Part shown: one piece after another, positions 11,168 to 38,838 of the stretch
Position numbering within the stretch: the first letter of the stretch is position 1
How the letters are laid out: every line of letters begins with the position of its first letter
Position numbers and translations under genes: made by a program
Notes under the pieces: model-generated
Database searches by the model: none
What the model was told of the DNA's origin: nothing
What the model saw: only the letters and a program-made list of their open reading frames with translations
NCBI GenBank assembly: GCA_963765575.1
Contig: CAVXWZ010000011.1
Location: 96,001-160,000, forward strand
Direction: 5' to 3'
DNA: 64,000 nt
From: an uncultured cyanobacterium
GTDB taxonomy: Bacteria > Cyanobacteriota > Cyanobacteriia > PCC-6307 > Cyanobiaceae

Positions 11168-11250
11168 GGGTGAGAGGCGAGAACTGTGCCAATCATGCCG
11201 AAAGCATCGGCCCCGCCAGAGCACAATCAGCTGCCTCTGTCCATCCCCGC

Positions 11251-14152: not shown

Positions 14153-14201
14153 TGGCCGCCAACGGGATCGAGCTGCAGCGGCCCTCGCCAGTCTGTGCTT
14201 G

Positions 14202-16033: not shown

Positions 16034-16072
16034 CCCTAATTTGGCGGCTGGCATTGCTTGCGGAACGGCCCC

Positions 16073-16712: not shown

Positions 16713-16745
16713 CCGCCATCGACCAGGCCCTTTAATGTCACTCGC

Positions 16746-17934: not shown

Positions 17935-17977
17935 TTCCCATCCCCCAGATTCTCTTGCCCCTGATGGCCGCGAATCT

Positions 17978-19528: not shown

Positions 19529-19548
19529 CGGTGCGCTGAAGGTGGAGA

Positions 19549-21261: not shown

Positions 21262-21368
21262 GGGCGGAGCCGGCGGCGCAGCGGTGGGCCGAGGCTAGGG
21301 GCCAGGCTTGCGGAGCTTCCGCATCGGCCAGACTGCCCCCCTCACCCGTTCTCCCCGCCACCGGCTCC

Positions 21369-23499
21369 ATGGTTGTCAGCGGCTCAGCAGCGTCCCCGGC
21401 CCAGGCTGGCCAGGCCGCGGCCCGCTCCTTTCCGCTGGCGGCGATCACCGGCCACGGCACCCTCAAGCTGGCCCTGCTGCTGGCGGCCGTGGACCCCGGC
21501 CTTGGCGGCGTGGTGATCGCCGGCGGCCGCGGCACCGGCAAGTCGGTGCTGGCCCGGGGCCTGCACGCCCTGCTGCCGCCCATCGACGTGCTCGATCTGG
21601 GCGGCGCGGCGGTGCAGGCCCTCAACGTGGATCCCCAGCGCCCCGACGACTGGAACGAGGCCGTGCGCGAGCGGCTGCAGCAGCTGGGCGCCGACCCCAG
21701 TGGCCGCGACACCCAGGCCCTGCTGCCCACCCGCGTGATCCCCGCCCCCTTCGTGCAGGTGCCGCTGGGCGTCACCGAAGACCGGCTGCTGGGCTCGGTG
21801 GATGTGGCCGCCTCCCTGGCCAGCGGCCAGGCGGTGTTCCAGCCGGGGCTGCTGGCCGAGGCCCACCGTGGCGTGGTGTACGTGGATGAGCTCAACCTGC
21901 TCGACGACGGCGTCACCAACCTGCTGCTGGCGGCGGTGGGCAGCGGCGAGAACCGCATCGAGCGCGAGGGCCTCAGCCTCGGCCCACCCCTGCCGCTGCC
22001 TGCTGATCGCCACCTTCAACCCCGAGGAGGGGGCGGTGCGCGACCACCTGCTCGATCGCTTCGCCATCTGCCTCAGTGCCAACCAGGCACTGGAGCTGGA
22101 GCAGCGGGTGGCCATCACCCGCTCCGCCCTCGACCATGCCGAGTCGGGCCAGGACTTCCGGGGCCGCTGGCAGGAGGAGACCGACGCCCTCGCCACCCAG
22201 CTGCTGCTGGCCCGCCAGTGGCTGCCCGATGTGCAGATCAGCCGCGAGCAGATCGCCTACCTGGTGACCGAGGCCCTGCGCGGCGGTGTGGAGGGCCACC
22301 GCTCCGAGCTCTACGCCGTGCGCGTGGCCCGCGCCCATGCCGCCCTCAGCGGCCGCGATCGCGTCGAGGCCGACGACCTGCAGGTGGCCGTGCGGCTGGT
22401 GATCGCCCCGCGGGCCCTGCCAGCTGCCGCCGCCCGATCCCGACCAGCCCCTGGAGCCGCCGCCGCCACCGCCGCCCCAGGGCGAGCAGCCGCCGGAGCA
22501 GCCGCCCGAACCCGACCAGAGCGAGCCGGAGCCCGAGGAGCGGACAGCGACCCCGAGCAGCCCGACCAGGAGGACGACACCCCGGAGGACCAGGCGCCCC
22601 CCTCGGTGCCGGAGGAGTTCATGCTCGATCCGGAGGCCGTGGCGATCGATCCTGAGCTGCTGCTGTTCGGGGCCGCCAAGGCCAAGAGCGGCGGCAGCGG
22701 CAGCCGGGCCGTGGTGTTCAGCGACTCCCGCGGCCGCTACGTCAAGCCGATGCTGCCCCGCGGCCCGGTGAAGCGCATCGCCGTCGACGCCACCCTGCGC
22801 GCCGCCGCCCCGTACCAGAAGAGCCGCCGCGAGCGCCAGCCCCACCGCAAGGTGGTGGTGGAGGACGGCGACCTGCGGGCCAAGCAGCTGCAGCGCAAGG
22901 CCGGTGCCCTGGTGATCTTCCTGGTGGATGCCAGCGGTTCGATGGCCCTCAACCGCATGCAGAGCGCCAAGGGTGCCGTGATCCGCCTGCTCACCGAGGC
23001 CTATGAAAACCGCGACGAAGTCGCCCTGATCCCCTTCCGCGGCGAGCAGGCCGAGGTGCTGCTGCCGCCCACCCGCTCGATCACCGCCGCCCGCCGGCGG
23101 CTGGAAGCGATGGCCTGCGGCGGCGGCTCACCCCTGGCCCACGGCCTCTCCCAGGCGGCGCGGGTGGGGGCCAACGCCCTGGCCACGGGCGACCTGGGCC
23201 AGGTGGTGGTGGTGGCGATCACCGATGGCCGCGGCAACGTGCCCCTGGGCCGCTCCCTGGGGCAGCCGGAGCTGGAGGGGGAGCAGCCGGTGGACCTCAA
23301 GGAGGAGGTGAAGCAGGTGGCCAGCCGCTACCGCGCCCTCGGCCTCAAGCTGCTGGTGATCGACACCGAGCGCAAGTTCATCGGCAGCGGCATGGGCAAG
23401 GAGCTGGCCGAGGCGGCCGGCGGCAAGTACGTGCAGCTGCCCAAGGCCAGCGATCAGGCCATCGCCGCCATCGCCATGGAGGCGATCAACGCGGTGTAA
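21369..23499 (+). CDS. chlD: Magnesium chelatase subunit D (apparent indels near 21983, 22420, 22540)
   Basis: Walker [18 protein letters not shown], acidic Pro-rich linker, vWA '[20 protein letters not shown]', ITDGRGN. Confidence 0.95.
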
Positions 23500-24520
23500 G
23501 CGGGGCAGCCCCTGCCCCTGGCGGTGACTCCGATTGGGCGTCTGTGGCCGTGCCGGTACCCGAGTCCTGGCCCGCCTCGCGTTCCGCCCGCTCCCGTGCC
23601 GCCCCGGTCTGAGCGGGGTAGAGCTCCTCGAAGAATTCGCCCAGCCCCACCGACAGGCTGCGCAGTCCGTTCATGAAGCCGGGGTCGCCGGTGAGTTTCT
23701 CCACGTCCCCCCCCACCGCCTGCCACTGGGCCGTGAGCCGCTCGGCATTGGCCACCGTCTGGCGCAGATCGGCGACCATCGTGGGGTCGTCGAGGCGGGT
23801 CATCAGCTGCCGTAGCTGGACGGAGCTGGCGTTGATGTTGGCGATGGTGGGTTGCACCCCTTGCACCGAACCCTCCAGGTCGCCTAACAGCGACTGACCC
23901 CGGCGCACGAGGCCACTGCCGTCCTGCACCAGAGCGCGGCTCTCGCGCAGGAAGACATCGGCCTGCTGGGCCGTGTCCTCCACGCTGCTAGCCACTCCGG
24001 CCATCTTGCTCAGCAATTCCTCCTGATCGGCCTGGCTCAGCAACTCGTAGAGCAGGGTGGTCACGGAGGCCAGGCTGGCCCCCTCATTGCCGCTGATGCT
24101 GGCGCCGTCGCAGAGCATGCGCTCGGGCACGCAGTCGCGGGAGCGGGGGCTGGGAGCGTCAGCGGGCAAAGTTTCGCCCTCGCTTTTGAGCACCACCTGG
24201 GCCTCCCCCCCCAGCAGCGACACCTGGCCGATCTCGGCCACCGCCGGCTGGGCCAGCCGGATGGATGGATTGGTGATCTCCAGCTGGGCAATCACCGCCT
24301 CCGGTGTGATTTCCACCGAGCGCACGCTGCCCACGATCACGCCACGGAACACCACCGGCGAGCGCACGGCCAGGCCGCTGGCCTCGTTGAAGCGCGCCTC
24401 CACCGTCCAGTACTGGCGGGTGATCGACAGCCCCCGCAGCCACAGCCCCAGGCCCACGGCACTGGTGATCGCGGCCAGCAGGGAGAAGCCCACGATCGCC
24501 TCACGCACGGAGCGGCGCAT
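23486..24520 (-). CDS. MlaD/MCE family protein (Ycf22/TGD2-like)
   Basis: [12 protein letters not shown] + TM, '[20 protein letters not shown]' MCE motif, helical tail. Confidence 0.88.
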
Positions 24521-24523
24521 CGT

Positions 24524-25336
24524 TCAGGCCTCCGCCGGCTGGATGGGTCCGTGCAGACTACCGCTGCGGAACTGCACCACATAGGGATTGTCGGTGCTGC
24601 GGTAGCTCTGCAGATCCCCCTGCCAGCGAAAGCGGCCCTCGTAGAGCAGCACCACCCGCTGCGCGGTGCGCTCGATCGTGCTGTGCACGTGGCTCACGAT
24701 CACCGAGCTGGCACCGGCCAGGTCGGTGGTGCGCACGATCAGGTCTTCGATGCGCGTGCAGGCCACAGGATCGAGCCCTGCAGTGGGTTCGTCAAACAGC
24801 AGCAGCGGCATGCGATCGCTCGGCTGGCTGGGGTCCTGGATCAGGGCACGGGCGAAGCTCACCCGCTTCTGCATGCCGCCGCTGAGCTCGCCCGGCATCT
24901 GCTGCTCGATCCCCCCCAGCCCCACGGCCTCAAGGGCCTGGCGCACCCGTTCGCGGACCTCTCCCTTGCCGAGACGGCTGAAGCGGTAGAGCAGGAAACC
25001 CACGTTCTGCTCCACTGTGAGCGAGGCCAGCAGGGCGGGGTTCTGGAACACCAGCCGCACGTCCGGAGGCCGCTGCTGATCCAGGCGCAGGTAGCGCTGG
25101 GCGTCACCGTGCAGCAGCACGCTGCCCCGGCTGGGGAGCAGCAGTCCGGCCAACAGGCGCAGGATGGTGGATTTGCCCGACCCTGACGGTCCCACCACCA
25201 CGAGCTGTTCGCCCCGCTCCAGGCTGAGGTTCACCGCGTCGAGCACACGGTTTGACCCCCACTGCATGGTCACGTCTCGGAGCTCGGCCAGGGGGCTTGC
25301 CGGCTGGTTCAGGGCTGCAACCCGATGCCACCCCAT
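24524..25336 (-). CDS. ABC ATPase, MlaF/TGD3-like
   Basis: GPSGSGKS, ELSGGMQKRVSFARAL, LLFDEPTAGLDP; start uncertain (25267 or 25336). Confidence 0.9.
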   Translation of the reverse strand: MGWHRVAALNQPASPLAELRDVTMQWGSNRVLDAVNLSLERGEQLVVVGPSGSGKSTILRLLAGLLLPSRGSVLLHGDAQRYLRLDQQRPPDVRLVFQNPALLASLTVEQNVGFLLYRFSRLGKGEVRERVRQALEAVGLGGIEQQMPGELSGGMQKRVSFARALIQDPSQPSDRMPLLLFDEPTAGLDPVACTRIEDLIVRTTDLAGASSVIVSHVHSTIERTAQRVVLLYEGRFRWQGDLQSYRSTDNPYVVQFRSGSLHGPIQPAEA

Positions 25337-25390
25337 CCTGCCAGGACCGATGAGGGGGGTGGATGTCCTGCCTACAGTTTGGGCACGACG

Positions 25391-26884
25391 TTGCCAGTCC
25401 CCCCTCCCCGGTCCGGCCCACCCTTGCCTCCTTCCGCCTCGCCCCCCCCGCCGCGCCGGCTGCGACACCCGCGATCCCAGCCCGGCTGGGTGGGCAGAGG
25501 CGATCGCCGTCAGCGCGACCTGGTGAGCCGTTCGCGCCGGGCGGTGCGCTGGCTGCAGCCCGGTCTGGTGGTGAAGCGCTGGGTGGTCACCTCGGGCCTG
25601 GGCCTGCTGATCGCCCTGATCGGGGCCGCCGTGTGGGCCGATCTGCAGCCGATCTACTGGAGCCTGGCCGGCATCCAGTGGCTGCTGCAGAGCATCACCC
25701 GGGTGCTGCCCCGGGAGATCACCGGTCCGCTGGTGCTCGCCATTGGTGCGGCGCTGATCTGGCTGGGTCAGAGCCGCAGCTTCGGCTCGATTCAAAAGGC
25801 TCTGGCTCCCGATCGCGACACCCTGCTGGTGGATGCACTCGCCGCCCAGGGCCGGCTCAACCGTGGCCCCAACATCGTGGCCATCGGCGGTGGCACGGGC
25901 CTCTCCACCCTGCTCAGCGGCCTCAAGCGCTACAGCTCCAACATCACCGCCATCGTCACCGTGGCTGATGACGGCGGCAGCAGCGGCGTGCTGCGCCGCG
26001 AGCTGGGGGTGCAGCCCCCCGGCGACATCCGCAACTGCCTGGCGGCCCTGGCCCGGGAGGAGCCACTGCTCACCCGCCTGTTCCAATACCGCTTCCCGGC
26101 CGGCACCGGCCTGGAGGGCCACAGCTTCGGCAACCTCTTTCTCACCTCGCTCTCCGCCATCACCGGCAGCCTGGAGGCGGCGATCACCGCCTCCAGCCGG
26201 GTGCTGGCGGTGCAGGGCCAGGTGGTGCCGGCCACCACCGCCGATGTGCGCCTCTGGGCCGAGCTCGAGAACGGGGAGCGCATCGAGGGGGAATCGCGCA
26301 TCAGCCGGGCCCCCAGCCCGATCGTCCGCCTCGGCTGCCTGCCGGAGCGGCCACCGGCGTTGCCGCGGGCGATCGAGGCCATCGCCCACGCCGACCTGAT
26401 CCTGCTCGGGCCTGGCAGCCTCTACACCTCGCTGCTGCCCAACCTGCTGGTGCCCGAACTGGTGGAGGCCATCGCCCGCAGCAAGGCGCCGCGGCTGTAC
26501 GTCTGCAACCTGATGACCCAACCGGGGGAAACCGACGGCCTGGACGTCTCAGGCCACCTGCGGGCGATCGAAGCCCAGCTGGCCAGCCTGGGGGTGGAGA
26601 AGCGCCTGTTCACGGCGGTGCTGGCCCAGGAGGCCCTGCCCCACACCGAGCTCCTCGATCAGTACCGCCGCAAGGGTGCTCAGCCGGTCAGCTGCGACGC
26701 CCGCGCTCTGCGCCGCCAGGGCTATGCGGTGATGGAGGCACCCCTGAACGGGGGCCGGCCCATGACCTCCCTGCGCCACGACCCCCGCAGCCTGGCGCTG
26801 GCGGTGATGCGCTTCTACCGCAACACCCGCAACCGCCAGGCGCCCGTCTGGCCGGTGGCCGAGGCAGATCAGCACGATCCCTAG
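25391..26884 (+). CDS. YvcK/UPF0052 (CofD-like) gluconeogenesis factor with N-terminal TMs
   Basis: IGGGTGLSTLLSGLK, VTVADDGGSSG, PPGDIRNC, GHSFGNL, GPGSLYTS; start uncertain. Confidence 0.9.
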   Translation: MPVPPPRSGPPLPPSASPPPPRRLRHPRSQPGWVGRGDRRQRDLVSRSRRAVRWLQPGLVVKRWVVTSGLGLLIALIGAAVWADLQPIYWSLAGIQWLLQSITRVLPREITGPLVLAIGAALIWLGQSRSFGSIQKALAPDRDTLLVDALAAQGRLNRGPNIVAIGGGTGLSTLLSGLKRYSSNITAIVTVADDGGSSGVLRRELGVQPPGDIRNCLAALAREEPLLTRLFQYRFPAGTGLEGHSFGNLFLTSLSAITGSLEAAITASSRVLAVQGQVVPATTADVRLWAELENGERIEGESRISRAPSPIVRLGCLPERPPALPRAIEAIAHADLILLGPGSLYTSLLPNLLVPELVEAIARSKAPRLYVCNLMTQPGETDGLDVSGHLRAIEAQLASLGVEKRLFTAVLAQEALPHTELLDQYRRKGAQPVSCDARALRRQGYAVMEAPLNGGRPMTSLRHDPRSLALAVMRFYRNTRNRQAPVWPVAEADQHDP

Positions 26885-26897
26885 GCCCAAGCGCCGA

Positions 26898-27485
26898 TCA
26901 GTAGGCGTCCTGCATCTCGTAGAAGTCGGGCTGGACGTAGTCCTTGCGCAGCGGCCAACCTTTCCAGTCCTCGGGCATCAGCAGGCGCTTGGGATGGGGA
27001 TGGCCCTCAAAGTGAATGCCGAACATGTCGAAGGTTTCGCGCTCCTGCCAGTCGGCGCCTCGGAACAGGCCGTAGAGGGTGGGGATGGTGAGGTCGCCGT
27101 CGCGCTCCAGGAACACCTTCAGGCGCACCTCCTGCGGTTTGACCTCGGCCCCGAGATGGGGCACGCCGGCACTCAGATCGGCCAGAACCCCGAGTTTGAC
27201 GAGGTGATAGAAGCTCACCAGCCGTCCCCCGGGGCCCTCGTCATAGCCGCCCTGGCATTGCAGGTAGTCGAAACCGTCGGCCTTGAGGGCTGTGGCCAGC
27301 AGGGGCAGGAACGCCGGCTCGACGCCGATCACTTCCACCCCCAGGTGGTCGCTCGGCAGCACCTGGTGCTCGAAGCCCTGGCCGCTCAGCCACTGGCTCA
27401 CCGCACCGGCAACGGTGGTGGGCGTGGCTTCGGCAGCGGCGGCGGGGGTGGCTGCGGCAGCCGGGGTGGGGGTGTCCTCAGGCAT
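26898..27485 (-). CDS. ndhJ: NDH-1 subunit J
   Basis: [39 protein letters not shown]. Confidence 0.96.
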
Positions 27486-27489
27486 CGAT

Positions 27490-28314
27490 TCAGGTGCGGG
27501 GGGTGGCTGCGGACGAAGTGCCAGCGGGGTCGGGTGCCACCGCCATCTCGGCCTGGGTGATCTCCCCCTCGGCCGCCAGGGCGCCAAGGGGGAGGCCGGC
27601 GGCGGCGGCCAGGGCGGCCTGCTGGGTTTCAGCGCGCAGATAGCGGCCGTTGACGAGCGGTTCGACGGGCACCAACCGGTGCGGCACGGTGCAATAACGG
27701 TGGGTGGGCAGCAGGTTGCCGCGTTCGGCCAGGGCCTCGTTGCCCACCTTCTTGCGCAGCTTGATCACCGCGTCGAAGATCGCCTCCGGCCGCGGCGGGC
27801 AGCCGGGCAGGTAGAGATCCACCGGAATCAGCTTGTCCACGCCGCGCACGGCGGTGGTGGAGTCGGCACTGAACATGCCGCCGGTGATCGTGCAGGCGCC
27901 CATGGCGATCACGTACTTCGGCTCGGGCATCTGCTCGTAGAGGCGCACCAGGGCCGGGGCCATCTTCATCGTGACGGTGCCGGCGATGATCAGCAGATCC
28001 GCCTGGCGAGGGCTGGAGCGGGGCACCAGGCCGAAACGGTCGAAGTCGAACCGGGAGCCGAGCAGGGCGGCGAATTCGATGAAGCAGCAGGCCGTGCCGT
28101 AGAGCAAGGGCCAGAGGCTGCTCAGCCGCGCCCAGTTGTGGATGTCATCGAGGGTCGTGAGGATCACGTTCTCGGAGAGATCCGAGGTCACGGTGGGGGA
28201 ACCCACCGGTCCGCAGCTGGCGGCCCGCAGGTCTTTGAGCGCCTGGATCGAGGGCGCCTCCCCCAGGCCGGGGCTGCCCAGGGTGGCGTTGGCAGGTGGG
28301 GTGGGGGGGGTCAT
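27490..28314 (-). CDS. ndhK: NDH-1 subunit K
   Basis: [36 protein letters not shown]. Confidence 0.97.
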
Positions 28315-28386
28315 GGATTCGACGGGGCGAGGTGCTCGGCGGATCTGAGAGGACGCCGGATCGGGGGGGATCGGCTCAGGCCGGTA

Positions 28387-28749
28387 TCAGCTCCATTCCA
28401 GCGCGCCTTTGCGCCAGGCGTAGGCCAGGGCCACCACCAGGATGGCAATGAACACCAGGGCCTCGATGAAGGCCAGCAGCCCGAGCCGGTGAAAGGCCAC
28501 TGCCCAGGGGTAGAGGAACACCGTTTCCACGTCGAAGATCACGAAGACCAGGGCGAACATGTAATAACGAATGTTGAACTGAATCCAGGCACCGCCAATG
28601 GGCTCCATGCCGGATTCATAGGTGAGCTGCCGCTCACCGGCCCGGCTTTTCGGCGCCAGCAGCTTGTTGGCCACGATTGCCAGCACGGGCACGGCCGCCG
28701 AGATCAGCAGAAAGCCGAGGAAGGCGTCGTAGCCGGAGAGCACGAACAT
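28387..28749 (-). CDS. ndhC: NDH-1 subunit C
   Basis: [32 protein letters not shown]. Confidence 0.97.
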
Positions 28750-28822
28750 CGGGCGGCCCAAGTTGGGCGGCAGTCTGGCACCTGCGGCGATCACTAGAGT
28801 CGTTGGGCCTGGCCTGATCCCG

Positions 28823-29293
28823 GTGACCGACGAGACGACCGCCGACAGCTCCCGCCCCGGGACGAGCCCACCGCTCGACCAGCAGCTCGATCCGGCGCCT
28901 GACCCGTCGCCCGGCCAGGCGCCCGACCCGTTGGCCGCCCAGCCTGGCGATGCCGCGGGTGCCGCCGAAGCCGACGATCCCGCCAGCCACCGCTTCGAGT
29001 GCCGCAGCTGCGGCTACGTCTACGACCCTGCCGAGGGCGTCAAAAAGGTGGGGATCAAGCCGGGGACTCCGTTCCTGGAGCTCGATCCAGCCGGCTTCCG
29101 CTGCCCGGTGTGCCGCAGCCGCATCGCCGCCTTCAACGACATCGGTCCCCGCAGCAAGCCCAGTGGCTTCGAGGAGAACCTCAACTTCGGTCTGGGGGTG
29201 AACCGGCTCACCCCGGGCCAGAAGAATGTGCTGATCTTCGGCGCCTTCGCCCTGGCGGTCGCCTTCTTCCTGTCCCTCTACTCCCTGCGTTGA
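28823..29293 (+). CDS. rubA: Membrane-anchored rubredoxin RubA
   Basis: [10 protein letters not shown]...CPVC, C-terminal TM. Confidence 0.93.
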
Positions 29294-30312
29294 TGAAGCC
29301 TGCCCTCCTCGCGTCCCTGCGGCGGCGGCTCTCGCCCCTGTTCAGCCTGGTGTTGGTGATCGGCCTGGGCTTCGCCCTCGGCGGTTGCGTCACCACCGGC
29401 CTGCCGGTGGCCGACACCAGCCCCTGGCAGCCGGTGCCCCTGGACACCCGCTCCAATCCCCTGGCCGTGGCTTTCTCCGATGACAGCCACGGCTTCCTCG
29501 TGGGCAGCAATCGGTTGATCCTGGAGACCAACGACGGCGGTGCCCACTGGGAGGAGCGCGCCCTCGACTTGCCCGAGGAGGAGAACTTCCGGCTGATCAG
29601 CATCGACTTCGATGGCCAGGAGGGCTGGATCGCCGGCCAACCAGGACTGCTTCTGCACAGCACCGATGCCGGCAGCAACTGGAGCCGGCTGTTCCTGGAC
29701 ACCAAACTGCCTGGCGAGCCTTACCTGATTACGGCCCTGGGCCGCAGCAGGGCGGAACTGGCCACCACTGTCGGCGCCGTCTACGAGACCGCCGACGGGG
29801 GCAACAGCTGGCAGGCGCGGGTGGAGGACGCCGCCGGTTCCGTGCGCGAGCTGCGCCGCAACCCCGAGGGCCGCTACGTGAGCGTGAGCAGCCTGGGCAA
29901 CTTCTTCTCCACCTGGGACCCGGGTCAGCCCACCTGGCAGGTGCACCAGCGCGTCAGCAGCCAGCGGCTGCAGTCGATGGGCTTCCAGCCCGACGGGGCG
30001 CTGTGGATGCTGGCCCGCGGCGCCCAGTTGCGCTTCGGCCCTGAGGTGGGTGAACCCGAAACCTGGGGCAAGGCGATCATCCCGATCACCAACGGCTACG
30101 GCTACCTCGATCTGGCCTGGGATCCCAAGGGCACCATCTGGACCGGGGGCGGCAGCGGCACCCTGCTGGCCAGCGACGACGGCGGCAGCAGCTGGCGCCG
30201 GGATCCGGTGGGGGAGCAGGAGCCCTCCAACTTCACCCGCCTGGTGTTCACCCGCGACGGCAAGGGCTTTGTGCTCGGTGAGCGCGGTTCGCTGCTGCGC
30301 TGGGTGGGCTGA
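29293..30312 (+). CDS. ycf48: PSII assembly factor Ycf48/Hcf136
   Basis: BNR repeats (TNDGGAHW, STDAGSNW, TADGGNSW), VSSLGNFF; lies before psbE. Confidence 0.95.
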   Translation: MKPALLASLRRRLSPLFSLVLVIGLGFALGGCVTTGLPVADTSPWQPVPLDTRSNPLAVAFSDDSHGFLVGSNRLILETNDGGAHWEERALDLPEEENFRLISIDFDGQEGWIAGQPGLLLHSTDAGSNWSRLFLDTKLPGEPYLITALGRSRAELATTVGAVYETADGGNSWQARVEDAAGSVRELRRNPEGRYVSVSSLGNFFSTWDPGQPTWQVHQRVSSQRLQSMGFQPDGALWMLARGAQLRFGPEVGEPETWGKAIIPITNGYGYLDLAWDPKGTIWTGGGSGTLLASDDGGSSWRRDPVGEQEPSNFTRLVFTRDGKGFVLGERGSLLRWVG

Positions 30313-30410
30313 GCCGGGGCGCTCCCGCCAACTTCTGTAACCATGGCCCGTCCCTGCTCCCGAGCCCTCAGGGCCTGCCCCTAGGATTCGACAGCTGAAC
30401 GCTTGTTGCC

Positions 30411-30659
30411 ATGGCTGCCGGCTCCACAGGAGAACGCCCGTTCTTCGAAATCATCACCAGCATTCGTTACTGGGTGATCCACGCGGTCACACTGCCCGCG
30501 ATCTTCCTCGCTGGATTCCTGTTCGTCTCCACCGGTCTGGCCTACGACGCCTTCGGTACCCCCCGTCCTGACGCCTATTTCCAGGCCCAGGAAAGCAAGG
30601 CCCCCGTGGTCAGTGAGCGCTACGAGGGCAGGAGTCAGCTTGACCTGCGCCTGCAATAA
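30411..30659 (+). CDS. psbE: Cytochrome b559 alpha
   Basis: [22 protein letters not shown]. Confidence 0.98.
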
Positions 30660-30662
30660 CCC

Positions 30663-30800
30663 ATGACCCAGTCCCCCGTCTCCACCACTCCGCGCAACTA
30701 CCCGATTTTCACGGTGCGCTGGCTCTCGGTTCACGCCCTCGGCATCCCCACGGTGTTCTTCCTGGGGGCCCTGGCGGCGATGCAATTCGTCCGCCGCTAA
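30663..30800 (+). CDS. psbF: Cytochrome b559 beta
   Basis: Translated by hand: [45 protein letters not shown]. Confidence 0.98.
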
Positions 30801-30830
30801 ACATCCACCGCTGAACGCCACCCCAACGTC

Positions 30831-30956
30831 ATGGGTCTGCAACGCAACACCAACCCCAACAACCTGCCGGTTGAGCTGAACCGCACGAGCCTTTACCTGG
30901 GCCTGCTGCTGGTGTTCGTCACCGGCGTGCTCTTCACCAGCTACTTCTTCAACTGA
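30831..30956 (+). CDS. psbL: PSII protein L
   Basis: Translated by hand: ...[34 protein letters not shown]. Confidence 0.97.
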
Positions 30957-30972
30957 CTCAGGAGCCCATCCG

Positions 30973-31173
30973 ATGAGCGGCAAGAAATCCACCCTGCCTG
31001 ACGGCCGCATCCCTGATCGGCTGCCCGATGGTCGTCCGGCCGTGGCCTGGCGCTCCCGCTGGACCGAGGGCGTTCTGCCCCTCTGGCTGGTCGCGACCGC
31101 CGGCGGCATGGCCGTGATCTTCGTGGTCGGCCTGTTCTTCTATGGCTCCTATGCCGGCGTGGGTTCCGCCTGA
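30973..31173 (+). CDS. psbJ: PSII protein J (picocyanobacterial long form)
   Basis: [12 protein letters not shown]...[14 protein letters not shown]. Confidence 0.97.
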
Positions 31174-31248: not shown

Positions 31249-31956
31249 GTGAAGAAGCGCAACCTGCTGCAAAACCCTGTCCTCTCCTGGCTGGCGGGCG
31301 CTCTCCTCTATGCCTACGGGCAGCTGGTGATGGGCACCTCCGCCATCCGGGTGTGGGCGAATCCAGAGACCGAAGCCCTGGTGCTGCAGCGGCAGGTGCC
31401 GGTGATCTACGTCCTCTGGCACTGCCACGTTTTTTTTCTGCCGTTGTTGGGCAGCCATGCCCGCCGGCGGCTGGCGGTGCTGCTCAGCAGCCATCGCGAT
31501 GCGCGCATCGTGGGGGTTGCGGCTCGGCTGCGCGGGGTGGAGCTGGTGGAGGGTTCCTCCACCCGCGGCGGCCTGACGGCCTACCGCAACCTGTTGCAGC
31601 GCCTGCGCCGGGGGCAGTCGGTGTGCATCACCCCTGACGGCCCCCGGGGGCCGGCGAAGGAGGTGAAGGCGGGGGTGCTGCACCTGGCCTGGCTCTCTGG
31701 CTGCGCCGTGGTGCCGGTGGGTCTGGCGCTCAGCCGCCGGCGGCGCCTGGGCTCCTGGGACCGCTCCGTGCTGCCCCTGCCCTTCGGCCGGGTCGTGCTG
31801 GCCCTGGGCGCCCCTGTCTACGTGGCCGCGGCTGGCGCTGGCGAACCGCGGCGCCGGGGTGACAGCCGTTTCCCCCACCAGGCCGACACCCTGGCGGCGG
31901 CCCTGGATGCCACCAGTGGCGAGGCGGCCCTGCGGCTGCACCGGGGCCGCCCCTGA
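31249..31956 (+). CDS. DUF374 lysophospholipid acyltransferase family (LpxJ-like lipid A secondary acyltransferase)
   Basis: YVLWH, LLSSHRDARIV, GSSTRGG, ITPDGPRGP, GSWDRSVLPLPFGR. Confidence 0.85.
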   Translation: MKKRNLLQNPVLSWLAGALLYAYGQLVMGTSAIRVWANPETEALVLQRQVPVIYVLWHCHVFFLPLLGSHARRRLAVLLSSHRDARIVGVAARLRGVELVEGSSTRGGLTAYRNLLQRLRRGQSVCITPDGPRGPAKEVKAGVLHLAWLSGCAVVPVGLALSRRRRLGSWDRSVLPLPFGRVVLALGAPVYVAAAGAGEPRRRGDSRFPHQADTLAAALDATSGEAALRLHRGRP

Positions 31957-33266
31957 TGGCTTTGCGGGGCCAGGCACTGCTGCTCAGCTACCGCCTGCTG
32001 ACGCTGCTGCTCACCCCGGCGCTGCTGGTGCTGCTGGTGCTGCGCAGTTGCCGGGGGCGGGAGGAACCGCGGCGGCTCGGGGAGCGGCTCGGGGTGGCCA
32101 GCCGGCGCCGACCCGCCGGGCCGCTCGTGTGGATCCATGCCGCCAGCGTGGGCGAGCTCACCAGCCTGGTGCCGTTGCTGGAGGCCCTGGCCACGAGCTG
32201 CGCCGGAGCAGGTCGGGCGTCGCCGGCAGTGCTGGTCACCAGCGTCACCCGCACCGCGGCCCGCCTTGCCCCCAGCCTGCTGCCCGCCGGCGTGCTGCAC
32301 CAGTACGTGCCGATCGACCACTGGCTGGCCATGGCCCTGTTCCGCCACCACTGGCGCCCCGATCTGGGGCTGCTGGCCGAGGCCGAGCTGTGGCCCGAGC
32401 TGGTGCACGCCATGCCGGGGCCGCTGTTGATCAATGCCCGCGTCAGCGCCCGCTCCTACCGGCGCCACCGCCGGCTGCCCGGCTACAGCCGCTGGCTCTA
32501 TGGCCGCTGCCGGGCCTGTTTCGCCCAGTCGGCTGCCGACGCGGAGCGTTTGCAGTGGCTGGGGGCGCCGCCGGCCCGGGCGCTGGGGTCCACCAAGTGG
32601 GATGCGCCGCCGCTGCCGGTGCACGCCCCCAGCCTGGGGCGGTTGCGGCGGCTGTGGCCGCAGCGGCCCGTGCTGCTGCTTGCCAGCAGCCATGCCGGTG
32701 AGGAGGCGTTGTTGCTCGCCGCCTGGCCAGCCATTTGCCGTCGCCTGGGGCCGCAGCGGCCGGCGCTGCTGCTGGCGCCGCGCCATCCGCAGCGGGCGGT
32801 GCAGCTGCTGGAGCAGGTGCAGGCCTGCCTGCCGGCCGCCCAGCTCTGGAGTCGCCTGGACGCCTGGTCCCAGCTGGGGGCCGGGCCCGAGCCGGCGCTG
32901 GATGCTGTGGTGGTCGATGCCCTGGGCCTGATGGGCAGTTGGATCGCCGCGGCCGCCGTGGTGGTGATGGGCGGCAGCTTCCGGGTCGGCGGCCGCGACC
33001 TGGGCGGTCACAATCCCCTCGAACCCGTGCGCGGCGGCCGGCCCGCGGTCTGCGGTCCGGACATGGCCAACTTCGCCGAGGTGAGCGAGCAGCTGCAGCG
33101 CTCCGGTTGGCTGGTCCGCTGCACCAGCGCGGCTGAGGCCTGGGAGGCGGCGAGCGCCTGGCTGCTCGAGCCGCCCCAGCCCGGTGCCCTGCCGGTCCTG
33201 CAGGGCCCTTCGGAGCTGATTGCCGCCACCATCATGGAGCGCCTGCCGGCGCCGCCCTGGCGCTGA
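31956..33266 (+). CDS. waaA: 3-deoxy-D-manno-octulosonate (Kdo) transferase
   Basis: WIHAASVGE, EAELWP, INARVS, ASSHAGEE, LAPRHPQR, GGSF...GGHNPLEP, GPDMANF. Confidence 0.92.
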   Translation: MALRGQALLLSYRLLTLLLTPALLVLLVLRSCRGREEPRRLGERLGVASRRRPAGPLVWIHAASVGELTSLVPLLEALATSCAGAGRASPAVLVTSVTRTAARLAPSLLPAGVLHQYVPIDHWLAMALFRHHWRPDLGLLAEAELWPELVHAMPGPLLINARVSARSYRRHRRLPGYSRWLYGRCRACFAQSAADAERLQWLGAPPARALGSTKWDAPPLPVHAPSLGRLRRLWPQRPVLLLASSHAGEEALLLAAWPAICRRLGPQRPALLLAPRHPQRAVQLLEQVQACLPAAQLWSRLDAWSQLGAGPEPALDAVVVDALGLMGSWIAAAAVVVMGGSFRVGGRDLGGHNPLEPVRGGRPAVCGPDMANFAEVSEQLQRSGWLVRCTSAAEAWEAASAWLLEPPQPGALPVLQGPSELIAATIMERLPAPPWR

Positions 33267-34327
33267 TGCTGCTGGCCACGCCCCGTTTCTGGTATCAGCC
33301 GCGGCCCAGCCCCCTGGCCAGGTTGCTGCGGCCCTGCGGCTGGCTCTACGGGCTGGCGGTGCACTACCACCGGGCCCGCAGCCGGGCCTGGCAGCCGCCG
33401 CTGCCGGTGGTCTCGGTGGGCAACATCACCCTGGGGGGCACTGGCAAGACGCCGCTGGTGCGCGCCCTGGCCGGGGAGCTCGTTGCCCGCGGCTGGCGGC
33501 CGGCGGTGCTCAGCCGCGGTTATGGCAGTGGCCGCCGTGAGCCCCTGCGGGTGGAGGCGCGGATGGATGCCGCGGCGGTGGGGGATGAGGCCCTGGAGCT
33601 GGTGCGCGCCCTGCCCGCCGTGCAGGTGTGGATCGGCGCCGACCGGGTCGCCTCCGCCCGCAGGGCCCTGGAAGCGGGCGCTGACCTGCTGCTGCTCGAT
33701 GACGGCCTTCAGCACTGGCGCCTGAGCCGCGACTGCGACGTGAGCGTGCTCGATGGGCAGCGCCGCCTCGGCAATGGCCTGCTCTTCCCCGCCGGTCCCC
33801 TGCGCGAGCCGGCCGCCGCCCTGGCACGGGCCGATCTGCTGGTGCTCAGCGGTGTTCAGCCCGACTGCGCCGCCGCCGCCACAGCCGCCGCCGCCACAAG
33901 CGCCACACCGGCAGGCCTGCCCTGGCCCAGTGGCCGTCCCTGGTTGTCGGTCCCGGCCCGGCTGGAGCTGCCTGGGGGCCTGCGCCAACGCCCCCTGTTG
34001 GCGTTCTGCGGCATCGGCCTGCCAGAGAAGTTCTTCGCCGCCCTGCGCCGCGAGGGCTGCCGGCTGGTGGGCTGCCAGGCCTTCCCCGACCACCATCCCT
34101 ATGCTCGCTCCGACGTGGAACGGTTGTTGACACTGGCCCGGTCGCAGCGCAATGCCACCCTGGTGACCACGGCGAAGGACTGGCAGAGACTCATGGCCGT
34201 GCTGGCACCTCACGAGCGTGCCGCTGTCGTGCCGGTGGAGTTGCGCCTCGATCCGCTGGCCGTGACCCAGCTCACCGATTCGGTGCTGGCCGTTGTGGCC
34301 AGCCGCGGCTGGGGCCAGCGTGGCTGA
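33266..34327 (+). CDS. lpxK: Tetraacyldisaccharide 4'-kinase
   Basis: VSVGNITLGGTGKTP, LSRGYG, GDEA, LDDGLQH, PAGPLREP, FCGIGLPEKFF, FPDHH, TTAKD. Confidence 0.94.
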   Translation: MLLATPRFWYQPRPSPLARLLRPCGWLYGLAVHYHRARSRAWQPPLPVVSVGNITLGGTGKTPLVRALAGELVARGWRPAVLSRGYGSGRREPLRVEARMDAAAVGDEALELVRALPAVQVWIGADRVASARRALEAGADLLLLDDGLQHWRLSRDCDVSVLDGQRRLGNGLLFPAGPLREPAAALARADLLVLSGVQPDCAAAATAAAATSATPAGLPWPSGRPWLSVPARLELPGGLRQRPLLAFCGIGLPEKFFAALRREGCRLVGCQAFPDHHPYARSDVERLLTLARSQRNATLVTTAKDWQRLMAVLAPHERAAVVPVELRLDPLAVTQLTDSVLAVVASRGWGQRG

Positions 34328-35447
34328 GGGGCGGGAACTGCTGCTGGTGGCCGGTGAGGCCTCTGGAGATCTGCACGGCGGAGCCCTGCTGCAGGCGCTC
34401 AGGCGCCTGGCCCCGGATCTGGCCGTGGCCGGGGTGGGCGGCGAGCGCCTGCGGGCCGCCGGCATGGACACGCTCGTTGATGTCAGCAGCCTGTCCGCCG
34501 CCGGCGTGGTGGAAATCCTCGGCAGCATCCGCCGCCATCACCGGGTGATGCGCCTGCTCAAGCAGCGCATGGACCGCCGGCGGCCCGCCGCAGTGGTGCT
34601 GATCGACTACCCCGGCTTCAACTTGTTTGTGGCCCGCGAGGCCCATCGCCGTGGCATCCCGGTGTTCTTCTACATCGCCCCCCAGGTGTGGGCCTGGGGG
34701 CGGGGCCGGGCCCGGCGCATGGCTGGCTTCATTGATCGCCTGGCGGTGATCTTCCCCTTCGAGGAGGGCCTGTTCAATGCCCATGGCCGCGCCTTCGCCA
34801 GCTACGTGGGCCATCCGATCCTCGATGAGATCGAGGTCACCGCCACGGCGGCCCAGACCCGCCGCCGCCATGGCCTGGATCCGCAGCGGCCCTTGCTGGC
34901 GCTGATGCCCGGCAGTCGCCGCAGTGAGATCCGCCTGCTGCTGCCCCCCCTGCTGGCCGCCGCCGAGCGGTTGCGCCGTCAGGGCTGGCAGGTGGTGCTG
35001 CTGCGCGCCTCCACCATTGATCCCACCGTGCTGGAGCGTGAGGCCGGCCTGCGGCCGCTGCCGCTGCCCTGCATCGCCGGCGACACCGTGAACCTGCTGC
35101 ATGCGGCCGATGCCGGCCTGGTGAGCTCCGGCACCGCCACCCTGCAGGCGGCGCTGCTGGGCTGCCCCCACGTGATCGTCTACCGCTTCAACTGGCTCAC
35201 CAACCTGCTGGGCCGGCTGGTCACCCGCCACCGGGTGCTGGGCCTGCCCAATGTGATCCTCGGCCGGATGGCCTTCCCGGAACTGCTGCAGGAGCGGGCC
35301 AACGCCGATGAACTGGTGGCCGCCCTGCAGGCGTTGCTGGTCGATCGCCCCGGGGTGGAGGCCGCCATCGCCGAGCTGCAGCGGCGCATGGGCCCCCCCG
35401 GCGCCTCCGCCCGCGCCGCCGAAGTCCTGCTGGAGCTGCTGCCATGA
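34320..35447 (+). CDS. lpxB: Lipid-A-disaccharide synthase
   Basis: VAGEASGDLHG, LIDYPGFN, YIAPQVWAW, IFPFE, VGHP, MPGSRRSE, SSGTATL, LPNVI, PELLQ. Confidence 0.94.
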   Translation: MAEGRELLLVAGEASGDLHGGALLQALRRLAPDLAVAGVGGERLRAAGMDTLVDVSSLSAAGVVEILGSIRRHHRVMRLLKQRMDRRRPAAVVLIDYPGFNLFVAREAHRRGIPVFFYIAPQVWAWGRGRARRMAGFIDRLAVIFPFEEGLFNAHGRAFASYVGHPILDEIEVTATAAQTRRRHGLDPQRPLLALMPGSRRSEIRLLLPPLLAAAERLRRQGWQVVLLRASTIDPTVLEREAGLRPLPLPCIAGDTVNLLHAADAGLVSSGTATLQAALLGCPHVIVYRFNWLTNLLGRLVTRHRVLGLPNVILGRMAFPELLQERANADELVAALQALLVDRPGVEAAIAELQRRMGPPGASARAAEVLLELLP

Positions 35448-37270
35448 CGGGGTCTGCCATGAAGCGGGCCGCCACGCCACCCGCCAGCCCCGACGGGCCC
35501 ACCCCCGCCGGGTTCAGCTACCGCCGCCTGCTGGCCTACGGCCGCCGCTACCTCTGGCCCACCTACCTGCTGGCCTTCCTGTTCAACCTCGGCTACGGGG
35601 CCTCCACCGGGGTGGTGCCGCTGGTGATCCGCTACCTGTTCGACCAGGTGCTGCCCAGTGCCGATCGCAGCCGGCTTTACGCCGCGCCGCTGGCCATCCT
35701 GGTGGTGATCGGTCTGCGGGCCCTGTGCCAGTTCCTGGGGTCCTACCTCAGCGAAACGGTGGGCCAGGGGATCACGGCCGATCTGCGCGCCGATCTCGCC
35801 CGCCGGGTGATGGTGTTGCCCCAGGCCTACATCGATCGCGGCAGTTCCTCCGGCCTGATTTCGCGGGTGCTCAGCGACGTCACGCTGGTCAAGACCGGCC
35901 TCGTCGATGGGCTCACATCCCTGGCCAAGGACAGCCTCACCCTGCTGGTGCTGGTGCTGGTGGCGTTCTACCAGGACTGGCTGCTCTCCCTGGTGGCCTT
36001 CATCCTCTTCCCCCTCGGCGTCTGGCCGGTGCTGCGCTCTTCCCGCAAGGTGCGTCGCCACTCCAGCCGCGGCCAGTCGAGCCTTGCCCGCCTGGCATCG
36101 ATCCTGCAGGAGGCGCTGGTGGGCTCGCGGGTTGTCAAGGTGTTCGGCATGGAGGGCTACGAACTGGAGCGCTTCGAGCTGGAGAACCGCTCGGTGCTGC
36201 GCTCCGCCCTGCGCACCACCCGCGCCAAACTCGCCAACCAGCCCCTGATGGAGCTGCTGGGCGCGGTGGGCTTCAGTGCCGTGCTGATCTACGGCGGCGA
36301 GGCGGTGATCGCCGGCACCCGCACCACCGGCAGCTTTTTCGCCTTCCTCACCTCCCTCTACCTCTGCTACGCCCCGTTCAAGGGCCTCGCCAAGGCCAAT
36401 GCCGTGCTGCAGCAGGGAGTGGCGGCCGCCCGGGATGTGTTCGCCATCCTCGACACGCCACCCGATCCCGCCGACCCGCCCCAGCCACGGCCGCTGGTGC
36501 CGTTCGGGCGGGCGCTGCGGGCTGAGGCGGTGACCTTCGCCTACGACCAGGAGCCAGTGATCCGGGGTCTGGATCTGGAGATTCCCCGGGGCAGCACCGT
36601 GGCGCTGGTGGGGCCCAGCGGCGGCGGCAAGAGCACGATCATCGATCTCTTCTGCCGCTTCTATGACCCCAGCGACGGGCGCATCTGCATCGATGGCCTC
36701 GATCTGCGCGAGCTTTCGCTGGCCGCGCTGCGCTCCCAGATCTCGCTGGTGGATCAGAACACCTTTCTGTTCAACGACACCGTGGCCAACAACATCGCCT
36801 ACGGCCAGGGCTTTGGCTCCAGAGGCCCCCAGGCGGCGGGTCGTGAGGAGATTGTGGCGGCGGCACGGGCCGCCAATGCCCACGGCTTCATCGAGCAGCT
36901 GAGCGATGGCTACGACACCCTGATCGGCGAGAACGGCGCCATGCTCTCGGGGGGGCAGCGCCAGCGCATCGCCATTGCCCGGGCCCTGATCAAGAACGCC
37001 CCGATCCTGTTCCTCGACGAGGCCACCTCCGCCCTCGATTCCGCCTCGGAACAGGTGGTGCAGGAGGCCCTCGATCGCCTGATGGCCAACCGCACCACCC
37101 TGGTGGTGGCCCACCGGCTGTCGACGGTCGTCAATGCCGACCGCATCTGTGTGATCGCCGCCGGCCGGCTGGCCGAGTCGGGCCGCCACGGCGACCTGCT
37201 GGCTCGCGGCGGCATCTATGCCGGCCTAGTTTCGTCACAATTCGCAACCGCTGAAGCGATATCGCCCTGA
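35444..37270 (+). CDS. msbA: Lipid A export ABC transporter (MsbA-like)
   Basis: 6-TM exporter domain plus GPSGGGKST, LSGGQRQRIAIARAL, FLDEATSALD; context with lpxK/lpxB. Confidence 0.85.
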   Translation: MTGSAMKRAATPPASPDGPTPAGFSYRRLLAYGRRYLWPTYLLAFLFNLGYGASTGVVPLVIRYLFDQVLPSADRSRLYAAPLAILVVIGLRALCQFLGSYLSETVGQGITADLRADLARRVMVLPQAYIDRGSSSGLISRVLSDVTLVKTGLVDGLTSLAKDSLTLLVLVLVAFYQDWLLSLVAFILFPLGVWPVLRSSRKVRRHSSRGQSSLARLASILQEALVGSRVVKVFGMEGYELERFELENRSVLRSALRTTRAKLANQPLMELLGAVGFSAVLIYGGEAVIAGTRTTGSFFAFLTSLYLCYAPFKGLAKANAVLQQGVAAARDVFAILDTPPDPADPPQPRPLVPFGRALRAEAVTFAYDQEPVIRGLDLEIPRGSTVALVGPSGGGKSTIIDLFCRFYDPSDGRICIDGLDLRELSLAALRSQISLVDQNTFLFNDTVANNIAYGQGFGSRGPQAAGREEIVAAARAANAHGFIEQLSDGYDTLIGENGAMLSGGQRQRIAIARALIKNAPILFLDEATSALDSASEQVVQEALDRLMANRTTLVVAHRLSTVVNADRICVIAAGRLAESGRHGDLLARGGIYAGLVSSQFATAEAISP

Positions 37271-38838
37271 TGACCACTGCCCCCACCGCTCCGGCCCCCC
37301 AGTCGCCCGCCAGCTACGACCGCTCCGACTGGGCCAGCGCCTTCCGCAACGTGGTCAGCGAGCTCACGGCCGTGCCCCTCAGCGCGGCCCGGGGCAGCAT
37401 CCCGGACGAGCTCAGCGGCTGCCTCTATCGCAATGGTCCCGGTCGCCTGGAACGGGGCGGCCGCTGGGTGCATCACCCCTTCGACGGCGACGGCATGATC
37501 ACCGCCCTGCGCTTTGCCGATGGCCGGGCCCAGCTCAGCAACCGCTTCGTGCGCACCGACGGTTGGCAGGCCGAGGAAGAGGCCGGCCGCTTCGTGTACC
37601 GGGGGGTGTTCGGCACCCAGAAGCCTGGCGGTCTGCTGGCCAACGCCTTCGATCTGCGCCTCAAGAACATCGCCAACACCCATGTCGTCGGTCTGGGCGA
37701 CCAGCTGCTGGCCCTGTGGGAGGCGGCCGAACCCCACGCCCTCGACCCCCAGACCCTGGAAACCCGCGGCATCACCCTGCTGGACGGGGTGTTGAAGCCC
37801 GGGGAGGCCTTCAGTGCCCACCCCCGCTTCGATCCCGGCCACCACGGCGAACCCCGCATGGTCACCTTCGGCGTCAAGGCCGGCCCCACCAGCACCATCC
37901 GGCTGATGGAGTTCGCCGCCAGCGACCAGCCCGGTTCCAGCGATGCCGGTACCGATCCGGCCCCCGCCGAGGTGCGTGCCGGCCAGCTGCTGGCCGAGCG
38001 CCGTGACAGCTTCCGCGGCTTCGCCTTCCTGCACGACTTTGCGATCACCCCCCAGTGGGCGGTGTTCCTGCAGAACGCCATCGCCTTCAATCCCCTGCCC
38101 TATGTGCTCGGCCAGAAGGGGGCGGCCCAGTGCCTGGCCTCCAGGCCCGGCGAGGCCGGCCAGTTCTGGCTGGTGCCCCGACCCGGCACCGCCGCCGCCG
38201 AGCGCTATCCCCGCCCCCTGCAGGTGCGGGCCCCGGAGGGCTTCGTGTTCCACCACCTCAATGCCTTCGAAGACGCCGCCAGCGGCGAGCTGGTGGTGGA
38301 TTCGATCTATTACGCCGACTTCCCCTCCATCGGTCCGGGCACCGACTTCCAGGCGGTGGATTTCGAGAGCATTCCCGAGGGTCAGCTGTTGCGCTGCCGC
38401 ATCGATCTGGGCCGCGCCGAGAGCGAACCGGCCGACTGTGTGCGCCACGAATGGCTGGAGCAGCGCTGCTGTGAGTTCGCCACTGTCCACCCCGAGCGCC
38501 AGGGGCTGGAACCTCGCTTCGCCTGGATGGCGGTGGCCGAGCGGGAACGGGGCAATGACCCCCTGCAGGCGATCGAGAAGCTCGACCTGGTCAGCGGTGA
38601 GCGCCGGGTCTGGAGCGCCGGCCGCCGGGGCTTCGTGAGCGAGCCGGTGTTTGTGCCCCGGCCTGGCGGCGGTGCCGAGGACGACGGCTGGCTGCTGTGC
38701 GTGGTCTGGAACGGCGCCCGCTGCGCCAGTGATCTGGTGATCCTCAATGCCGCGGACATGGGCGAGCAGGCGGTGCTGGAGCTGCCCCTGGCGATTCCCC
38801 ATGGCCTGCACGGCAGCTGGGTGCCGGCGCAGACCTAA
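37270..38838 (+). CDS. Carotenoid oxygenase family (apocarotenoid cleavage dioxygenase)
   Basis: YRNGPG, HPFDGDG, FSAHP, LHDFA, FHHLNAFE, EPVFVP, EDDGW, HGLHGSW (four Fe-binding His). Confidence 0.93.
   Translation: MTTAPTAPAPQSPASYDRSDWASAFRNVVSELTAVPLSAARGSIPDELSGCLYRNGPGRLERGGRWVHHPFDGDGMITALRFADGRAQLSNRFVRTDGWQAEEEAGRFVYRGVFGTQKPGGLLANAFDLRLKNIANTHVVGLGDQLLALWEAAEPHALDPQTLETRGITLLDGVLKPGEAFSAHPRFDPGHHGEPRMVTFGVKAGPTSTIRLMEFAASDQPGSSDAGTDPAPAEVRAGQLLAERRDSFRGFAFLHDFAITPQWAVFLQNAIAFNPLPYVLGQKGAAQCLASRPGEAGQFWLVPRPGTAAAERYPRPLQVRAPEGFVFHHLNAFEDAASGELVVDSIYYADFPSIGPGTDFQAVDFESIPEGQLLRCRIDLGRAESEPADCVRHEWLEQRCCEFATVHPERQGLEPRFAWMAVAERERGNDPLQAIEKLDLVSGERRVWSAGRRGFVSEPVFVPRPGGGAEDDGWLLCVVWNGARCASDLVILNAADMGEQAVLELPLAIPHGLHGSWVPAQT

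Follow-up and report, generated by a model that had tools for sequence, protein, structure and literature searches.

The genome of an uncultured cyanobacterium of the family Cyanobiaceae (GenBank assembly GCA_963765575.1) carries an operon of five genes predicted to act late in the synthesis of lipid A linked to 3-deoxy-D-manno-octulosonate (Kdo). The operon lies within positions 96,001 to 160,000 of contig CAVXWZ010000011.1, a stretch of 64,000 nucleotides referred to here as the window, whose own numbering is used for coordinates given without a locus handle. A sixth gene assigned to the same pathway, lpxI, is found elsewhere in the window. The genes are as follows:

31249..31956, + strand: lpxJ-like (DUF374) secondary acyltransferase (PF04028, 74 bits)
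31956..33266, + strand: waaA, Kdo transferase (PF04413, 146 bits; cut-off 24)
33266..34327, + strand: lpxK, lipid A disaccharide 4'-kinase (Pfam LpxK, 307 bits)
34320..35447, + strand: second lpxB, lipid A disaccharide synthase (Pfam LpxB, 280 bits)
35444..37270, + strand: msbA-like lipid A flippase (Pfam ABC membrane and ATPase domains above cut-off)
9681..10511, + strand: lpxI, UDP-2,3-diacylglucosamine pyrophosphatase, the predicted lipid X former (PF17930 and PF06230 over cut-off), between hisS and hisB

All five genes of the operon are open and give Pfam matches above cut-off. The original prediction, which had read here five intact, overlapping frames with DUF374/LpxJ-like, waaA, lpxK, lpxB and msbA motifs, is upheld both in the frames and in the gene identities. 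Neighbouring genes are tightly coupled: TGATG stop/start overlaps join lpxJ to waaA at 31956 and waaA to lpxK at 33266, the second lpxB starts with GTG at 34320, eight bases within lpxK, an ATGA overlap at 35444 joins it to msbA, and TGATG at 37270 couples msbA with a native carotenoid oxygenase gene. The GC content at third codon positions (GC3) is 0.87–0.91 in the five genes versus 0.88–0.95 in six native neighbours. Cyanobium records at NCBI already name these proteins. The system is larger than the five genes first described, since lpxI, whose product matches PDB 4ggm at E 1e-36, and an lpxL-like acyltransferase gene on another contig (C5) had been overlooked; it comprises seven genes.

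Cyanobacterial lipid A synthesis has been described as a four-gene pathway, lpxA/C/D/B (PMC3087551, in part, meaning here and below the accessible portion of a paper; its supplement samples Anabaena, Synechocystis and Prochlorococcus), and cyanobacterial LPS (lipopolysaccharide) as devoid of Kdo and phosphate (PMC4515613 and PMC4377996, in part). The contrast that the original prediction drew with the four-gene pathway holds against the accessible portion of PMC3087551. The native genes are also present and open here, as an lpxC-fabZ-lpxA-lpxB cluster on contig C2 and lpxD on contig C1; beyond them lie the seven genes, predicted to form lipid X, phosphorylate the 4' position, transfer Kdo, add secondary acyl chains and supply a dedicated flippase. 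The second LpxB is 37–38% identical to the native copy. Kdo supply, which the original prediction had proposed to look for elsewhere in the genome, is provided for by kdsD-kdsA-kdsC-kdsB on contig C2 (kdsC named from reading its translation). A search of this genome found no lpxH. Every step from LpxA to secondary acylation, and the supply of CMP-Kdo, has a gene in this genome, and judged by family membership, a complete Kdo-lipid A gene set is formed by native lpxA/C/D/B and kds together with the seven genes, which are intact and likely imported.

Conservation of active-site residues was counted over 31–55 distinct carrier sequences, about 50–94% alike. Required residues were taken from PMC6286764 (Aquifex LpxK and WaaA, Caulobacter LpxI) and PMC5785501 (Escherichia coli LpxB), both in part, and from PMC6148475 (Rickettsia LpxJ). 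LpxK scores 202 bits on TIGR00682, above the equivalog cut-off of 92; in an alignment to 4ehw, Aquifex K51, T52, D99, E100, D138, D139 and H261 correspond to K61, T62, D107, E108, D145, D146 and H276, which are invariant in 54–55 sequences. WaaA aligns to PDB 2xci and 4bfc, and the catalytic residues G30, E31, E98, K162, R212, N273 and E276, mapped on 2xci, fall on G66, E67, E142 or E144, K214, R276, N353 and E356; all are invariant, including both candidates for E98. The second LpxB scores 264 bits on TIGR00215 (cut-off 190), contains the full test set of E15, S17, D98, PGSR and T277, and has E13, S15, D96 and PGSR invariant in 54/54 sequences. LpxI has both its N and C domains, with Caulobacter Q169, T187, D188 and D225 represented by Q169, T187, D188 and D223 in 31/31. 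The six residues required by Rickettsia LpxJ (W60, H61, D86, D132, W172 and D173) correspond to W57, H58, D84, D130, W170 and D171 of the LpxJ-like protein, mapped by motif from the text and primers of PMC6148475 with no full alignment, and are invariant in 44/44. The LpxL-like protein matches PF03279 (92 bits versus 22) and has the HX4D motif (H147 in 17/17, D152 in 16/16); as it falls below the TIGR02207 subfamily cut-off (56 versus 298), it is named lpxL-like only, and its putative lipid A role rests on co-occurrence. MsbA scores 557 bits on TIGR02203 (cut-off 602), which is its top family of 170, and no other of the genome's 43 matches scores higher; operon position and gene tree agree with its predicted identity. 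Apart from one position in LpxB, the putative catalytic residues of the set are invariant.

The set is confined to a narrow group. LpxK was found in 31/31 genomes of the same genus, 0/5 other genera of the family and 0/24 other families of the class. In a wider sample of 401 family genomes from 64 genera it was found in 56: the window's genome, 29/29 of its own genus (g1), 25 of a second genus (g71) and one fragment in g51, a 63-aa frame at a contig end (G081). At least 28 g71 genomes were sampled, and the three without an LpxK match are 60–65% complete. WaaA is found in 25/29 g1 genomes and 26 g71 genomes, along with one divergent copy in g73 (G271), a strong match on a 1.7-kb contig that falls outside the operon WaaA group. 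Weak PF04413 matches in g5, g33 and g36 were not counted as waaA, as the one checked (G035) proved to be a GT4 glycosyltransferase. The kds genes of G035 (L122:66-10879) sit among sulfotransferase-like and GT4 genes. The original prediction would have failed had these genes been widespread and vertically inherited in picocyanobacteria; this survey finds LpxK restricted to two genera, one fragment apart. Its view that the trait was acquired by this lineage stands as regards import, and is to be amended in that the trait is an old one of two whole genera.

The other genes of the set follow LpxK. In 80 genomes chosen from 114 (16 g1, 14 g71 and 50 others), lpxI is present in 30/30 carriers versus 0/50 others; two full lpxB copies are present in 30/30 carriers, while 44 of the 50 others have one full copy and six incomplete genomes have none; and the lpxL-like gene is present in 28/30 carriers versus two weak matches (g32) in the 50 others. 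Seventeen of 20 lpxL-like copies fetched lie at the same site and three are divergent. In three g71 genomes (G303, G208 and G319; L160-L162) the sole match is a divergent PF03279 acyltransferase, 22–25% identical, at another site. kdsA is far wider, occurring in 203/401 family genomes and 33/64 genera, most without waaA; the kds genes, being common across the family, did not arrive with the imported set.

The published record is consistent with this distribution. In Table S2 of PMC9361551 (in part; strains counted by eye among the matches listed), lpxK (CK_00045797) and a Kdo transferase (CK_00036016) occur in the same 25/132 strains, all of subcluster 5.2: 22/67 freshwater, 3/17 brackish and 0/48 marine. 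Carriers there include PCC 7001, NIES-981, NS01 and C. usitatum; C. gracile PCC 6307, V. limneticus LL, WH5701 and all 48 marine strains are non-carriers. At least two lpxB are listed in 23/25 carriers versus 1/107 others. These Cyanorak clusters, the same genes by pattern, appear in the accessible portion of that paper as bare presence-table rows, without pathway, origin or meaning, and its main text, so far as accessible, contains no occurrence of LPS, lipopolysaccharide or Kdo. No paper on this pathway in Cyanobium was found in the full-text literature searched, outside which most subscription journals lie.

The intact, coupled genes, the retained catalytic residues, the presence of a gene for each step and the co-occurrence at three separate sites have led us to propose that the six window genes and the lpxL-like gene, with native lpxA/C/D and kds, probably provide two Cyanobium-type genera with a phosphorylated, Kdo-linked and further acylated lipid A. 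The steps are predicted from what the enzyme families do elsewhere. Native LpxA/C/D would produce UDP-diacylglucosamine, part of which LpxI would cleave to lipid X, and the second LpxB would join the two. LpxK would then phosphorylate the 4' position, WaaA would attach to the 6' position Kdo supplied by native KdsD/A/C/B, secondary acyl chains would come from LpxJ and the LpxL-like enzyme, and MsbA would flip the finished Kdo-lipid A. The set would have been assembled long ago from at least two donor groups, fixed in the common ancestor of the carriers and inherited since.

Several observations weigh against this proposal. WaaA (full-length matches of 145–232 bits, below all five PRK05749 cut-offs of 363–617, although these models look lineage-specific) and LpxI (189 bits over its full length on NF047836, equivalog cut-off 400) fall below their NCBIfam cut-offs, and MsbA and the LpxL-like protein do so too. 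At the ribose-binding position E281 of LpxB, the window protein and 16/54 carrier sequences have Q and 38 have E, a conservative change. In 4/29 own-genus genomes, among them one that is a single contig, lpxK is retained and waaA was not found. A search of this genome for a GT9 heptosyltransferase found none, which leaves the core beyond Kdo without explanation. Older reports describe some Kdo in LPS preparations of Anacystis nidulans and a few others (PMC4515613, in part). Further points come from the gene trees, all of them quick LG+G4 trees without a mixture model, built on sparse rows chosen from searches seeded with the window proteins. In approximately unbiased (AU) tests, an origin of the second LpxB as a duplicate of native LpxB stays allowed (p 0.24). 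A tree of ACO and HisS, markers that flank the insertions, places 9/10 carriers in one clade (98) and one outside it, and RpoB neither supports nor rejects carrier monophyly (AU p 0.116).

To these is added the state of kdsA, which in this assembly has two single-base breaks (L121:11590-13009; G000:C2 about 543.6-545.0 kb) and runs on into the kdsC-like gene. At both places, contigs from related populations (one contig from each of two runs per place) are one base short, which makes a pseudogene unlikely, and kdsA is whole in 27/29 other searched genomes of the genus. fabI is likewise split over two frames in the window (11790-12641 and 11858-12211, - strand) and is in frame in relatives. The kdsA breaks are probably assembly errors, and the fabI split probably likewise; 21 other places checked in the assembly showed no split gene, so such breaks are not general there. 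A 589-aa, low-GC3 open reading frame (ORF) near the kds cluster (L121:1234-3003, - strand) has codon use unlike that of its neighbours.

The retention of two LpxB enzymes deserves separate consideration. Native LpxB carries PQEWA and PASR in 15/15 sequences and imported LpxB PQVWAW and PGSR in 54/54; PGSR is also found in 143/149 LpxB relatives from outside. The differing motifs and the retention of both copies suggest different jobs. We tentatively raise the possibility that carriers run two parallel lipid A routes, so that one outer membrane would hold two LPS anchors of different chemistry, with native LpxB using an acceptor other than lipid X and the mosaic operon expressed behind a photosystem II operon. 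Such an acceptor would explain why LpxH and LpxI are missing from cyanobacteria and why LpxI and a second LpxB needed to accompany LpxK, and two routes would explain why no tested carrier has lost either LpxB.

An alternative that we consider unlikely holds that the phosphates are temporary, added to let WaaA act and afterwards stripped off or exchanged for galacturonic acid, which would leave mature LPS Kdo-bearing and phosphate-poor, with endotoxicity little changed. Some alphaproteobacteria strip lipid A phosphates, and native lpxB is retained in 30/30 carriers. Marine Synechococcus lipid A has galacturonic acid at the 4' position and a glucose chain at 6' (PMC4515613, in part, reviewing primary work). 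Against removal stands a branch without waaA (L051:2894-7982, L055:2934-7956; also L104-L107) that keeps lpxI, lpxK, second lpxB and lpxJ, suggesting that the 4'-phosphate is useful in itself. Loss of waaA with retention of lpxK, including in the single-contig genome, indicates that Kdo transfer is dispensable in this branch. Its waaA slot is filled by GT4, GT2-like, GT8-like/sulfotransferase and further sulfotransferase-like genes, and these may link a non-Kdo or sulfated core to phosphorylated lipid A. In L045:90-7214, L038:364-4137 and L056:12-2137, two tandem, unrelated Kdo-transferase genes stand in place of waaA and represent a later transfer into the same slot; those of L045 and L038 lie behind neuB-family and UDP-GlcNAc 2-epimerase genes. 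The filling of the slot by other surface-sugar genes in relatives such as L051, L055, L045 and L038, and the retention of both lpxB genes, would also suit a minor role, in which the native route would make the bulk of the LPS and the imported one only a Kdo-lipid A that anchors a single surface polysaccharide. This is improbable, as the presence of lpxI, lpxK and second lpxB in all 30 well-assembled carriers better fits a core envelope role.

The proposed import is supported by the gene trees. The operon WaaA sequences form a single clade (100), placed with alphaproteobacterial rows (97), and LpxK, nested among alphaproteobacterial rows, is sister (98) to L073, which is labelled only 'Proteobacteria' and groups with alphaproteobacteria. 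AU tests reject a union with Binatia-like rows for both WaaA (p 1e-41) and LpxK (p 8e-5). MsbA, by contrast, has as its sister (support 99) the MsbA encoded after lpxB in Binatia-like loci, and its alphaproteobacterial union is rejected (p 0.028). LpxI is 77–94% identical among carriers and 49–58% identical to its nearest outsiders, the named ones being Rhodobacterales, among them Cereibacter, Frigidibacter and Gemmobacter. The two nearest proteins to the second LpxB are 51% and 49% identical; of the latter's six organism-named relatives, two carry the label Deltaproteobacteria, two Candidatus Binatia and one each that of two other phyla. A cluster of P0242, P0391 and P0392 (51% identical), sister to operon LpxB (support 95), may mark the true donor or another recipient, and an alphaproteobacterial union for this protein stays allowed (p 0.072).

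A single circularly permuted Binatia-like cassette, suggested by gene order, is thus rejected for WaaA and LpxK, and a single alphaproteobacterial donor for MsbA. The set is likely a mosaic to which at least two donor groups contributed. The original prediction of one proteobacterial-type cassette therefore stands in its foreign origin and falls as a single cassette, since the trees reject a single sampled donor. No close copy was found in plasmid records (LpxK best 42%, 37 records; MsbA best about 41%; LpxL-like best 29%) or in phage records (WaaA best 34%, 9 records). Two unannotated 174-kb Campylobacter phage records (H33 MG065691.1 and H34 MG065686.1) contain a WaaA-like match (33%), which is either host DNA or a phage-borne gene.

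The same trees speak against ancestral cyanobacterial inheritance with loss in all other oxygenic lineages. Across 251 genomes of the phylum, WaaA was found only in this genome and in 99 genomes of two families in another class (f42, 96/98; f48, 3 genomes), read as non-photosynthetic Cyanobacteriota from the label 'same phylum, other class'. Their possession of waaA, and the permitted union of the two LpxB copies, would favour such inheritance. A union of operon WaaA with theirs is rejected, however (p 0.002), identity being 23–27% to their copies versus 37–41% to alphaproteobacterial ones. LpxI is nearest to Rhodobacterales, LpxK was not found in any of 24 other families of the class, and carriers nest among non-carrier genera in the ACO+HisS and RpoB trees. 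Ancestral inheritance is thus largely refuted and most improbable. That the genes occupy the same sites at three loci favours a single fixation, which likely took place long ago in the common ancestor of the carriers, with inheritance since; later spread between the two genera is possible.

The borders of the insertion are defined by native genes:

30411..31173, + strand: native psbEFLJ operon, directly upstream of the lpxJ-like gene, a possible source of read-through
37270..38838, + strand: native carotenoid oxygenase gene (PF03055, RPE65 family), right border of the insertion, its start overlapping the msbA stop
10532..31173, no strand assigned: hisB-psbJ block of ~21 kb, bounded by lpxI on one side and the operon on the other; its orientation is likely reversed compared with non-carriers

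Cyanobacterial genes flank the insertion: ndhJKC, rubredoxin, ycf48 and psbEFLJ (named by reading translations) and the RPE65-family oxygenase, whose gene is present in 30/30 non-carriers. A search of named genomes gave 76 loci, 49 from close relatives (at least 50% identity), among them the isolates Cyanobium sp. CH-040, ATX 6A2, T1B-Tous and FACHB-13342, C. usitatum Tous and Synechococcus sp. 8F6. Among these 49, psbJ lies about 11–206 nt from the DUF374 gene in 35/35 loci holding both, and msbA adjoins the oxygenase gene in 41/43 holding both. That the operon is chimeric in assembly, stems from a contaminant or belongs to a recent island in decay, as the single-base breaks in fabI and kdsA might suggest, is refuted by the same junctions in dozens of separate assemblies, isolates included, by host-like GC3 and by invariant active sites. 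Three records titled Aphanothece, Chitinophaga and Bradyrhizobium (L047, L049 and L069) hold a Cyanobium-type locus with psbEFLJ flanks, and their titles look wrong. One relative's assembly has a partial lpxK-lpxB repeat (L052:8001-10943 and L016), a duplication or a misassembly.

psbJ and lpxJ are separated by 75 nt in the window and by some 22 nt in L032, L033 and L042. Sequence scans revealed no terminator-like site in this gap and no promoter-like site within 28.5–39.5 kb of the window. The short gap without a terminator-like site makes read-through from psbEFLJ, and hence co-transcription of the operon with it, plausible. In non-carriers, hisB lies at most 1.5 kb from the oxygenase gene in 22/30 genomes, and hisS lies near hisB in 0/30 and near psbJ in 3/30; carriers show the order hisS-lpxI-hisB in 29/30 and psbJ-operon-oxygenase at the other end. 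The 21-kb hisB-psbJ block was therefore likely inverted, with new genes at both its ends. Had a single insertion been split by the inversion, the two sites would be accounted for; given the different nearest relatives of LpxI, lpxI and the operon may also have arrived separately. A carbonic-anhydrase-like ORF (by motif reading; 11170-11871, + strand), located between hisB and fabI, has a patchy occurrence in relatives.

Two known systems resemble this one. The alphaproteobacterial variant of the Raetz pathway (Caulobacter LpxI, Rickettsia LpxJ; order msbA-DUF374-waaA-lpxK) likewise uses LpxI instead of LpxH and LpxJ as a late acyltransferase, all six critical residues being present here as well. 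The DUF374-waaA-lpxK order of alphaproteobacterial-type loci (L073, L082, L095 and L098) is common to the window operon, and it is with bacteria of this variant that WaaA and LpxK group. Unlike the variant, the present system sits in an oxygenic host, has lpxB-msbA after lpxK with an MsbA that is not alphaproteobacterial, keeps lpxI apart from lpxB and retains native lpxB as a second copy. Binatia/deltaproteobacteria-like contigs (L301, L306 and L307; labels resting on 4 of 6 organism-named relatives of P0243) carry the same six families in the order lpxI-lpxB-msbA-DUF374-waaA-lpxK. They share the lpxB-msbA adjacency, and their LpxB is 46–52% and their MsbA, the sister group noted above, 48–51% identical. 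They differ in the permuted order, in the rejection of their WaaA and LpxK as sisters and in an LpxI that is only 30–34% identical.

The enzymes are of known kinds and it is their host that is unexpected: automatic annotation already names the genes, and none represents a new enzyme family. As read from the genomes, the set is real and intact, is old and is shared across the clade; as a mosaic import, it fills out a known pathway in organisms described as not having it. At the gene level, the clade breaks the four-gene, no-Kdo, no-phosphate rule. The absence of Kdo and phosphate is the usual reason given for the low toxicity of cyanobacterial LPS (PMC3087551, PMC4515613 and PMC4377996, in part), and Cyanobium usitatum, a member of the carrier clade, is described as cosmopolitan in lakes and reservoirs (PMC9361551, in part). 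If the product is as predicted, surface charge, recognition by phages and grazers and the cyanobacterial contribution to freshwater endotoxin signals would differ between close relatives, for which cultured carrier and non-carrier strains offer a ready matched comparison. With two LpxB enzymes in one cell, there is also a direct way to ask how lipid A is built in ordinary cyanobacteria, which have no known enzyme that forms lipid X.

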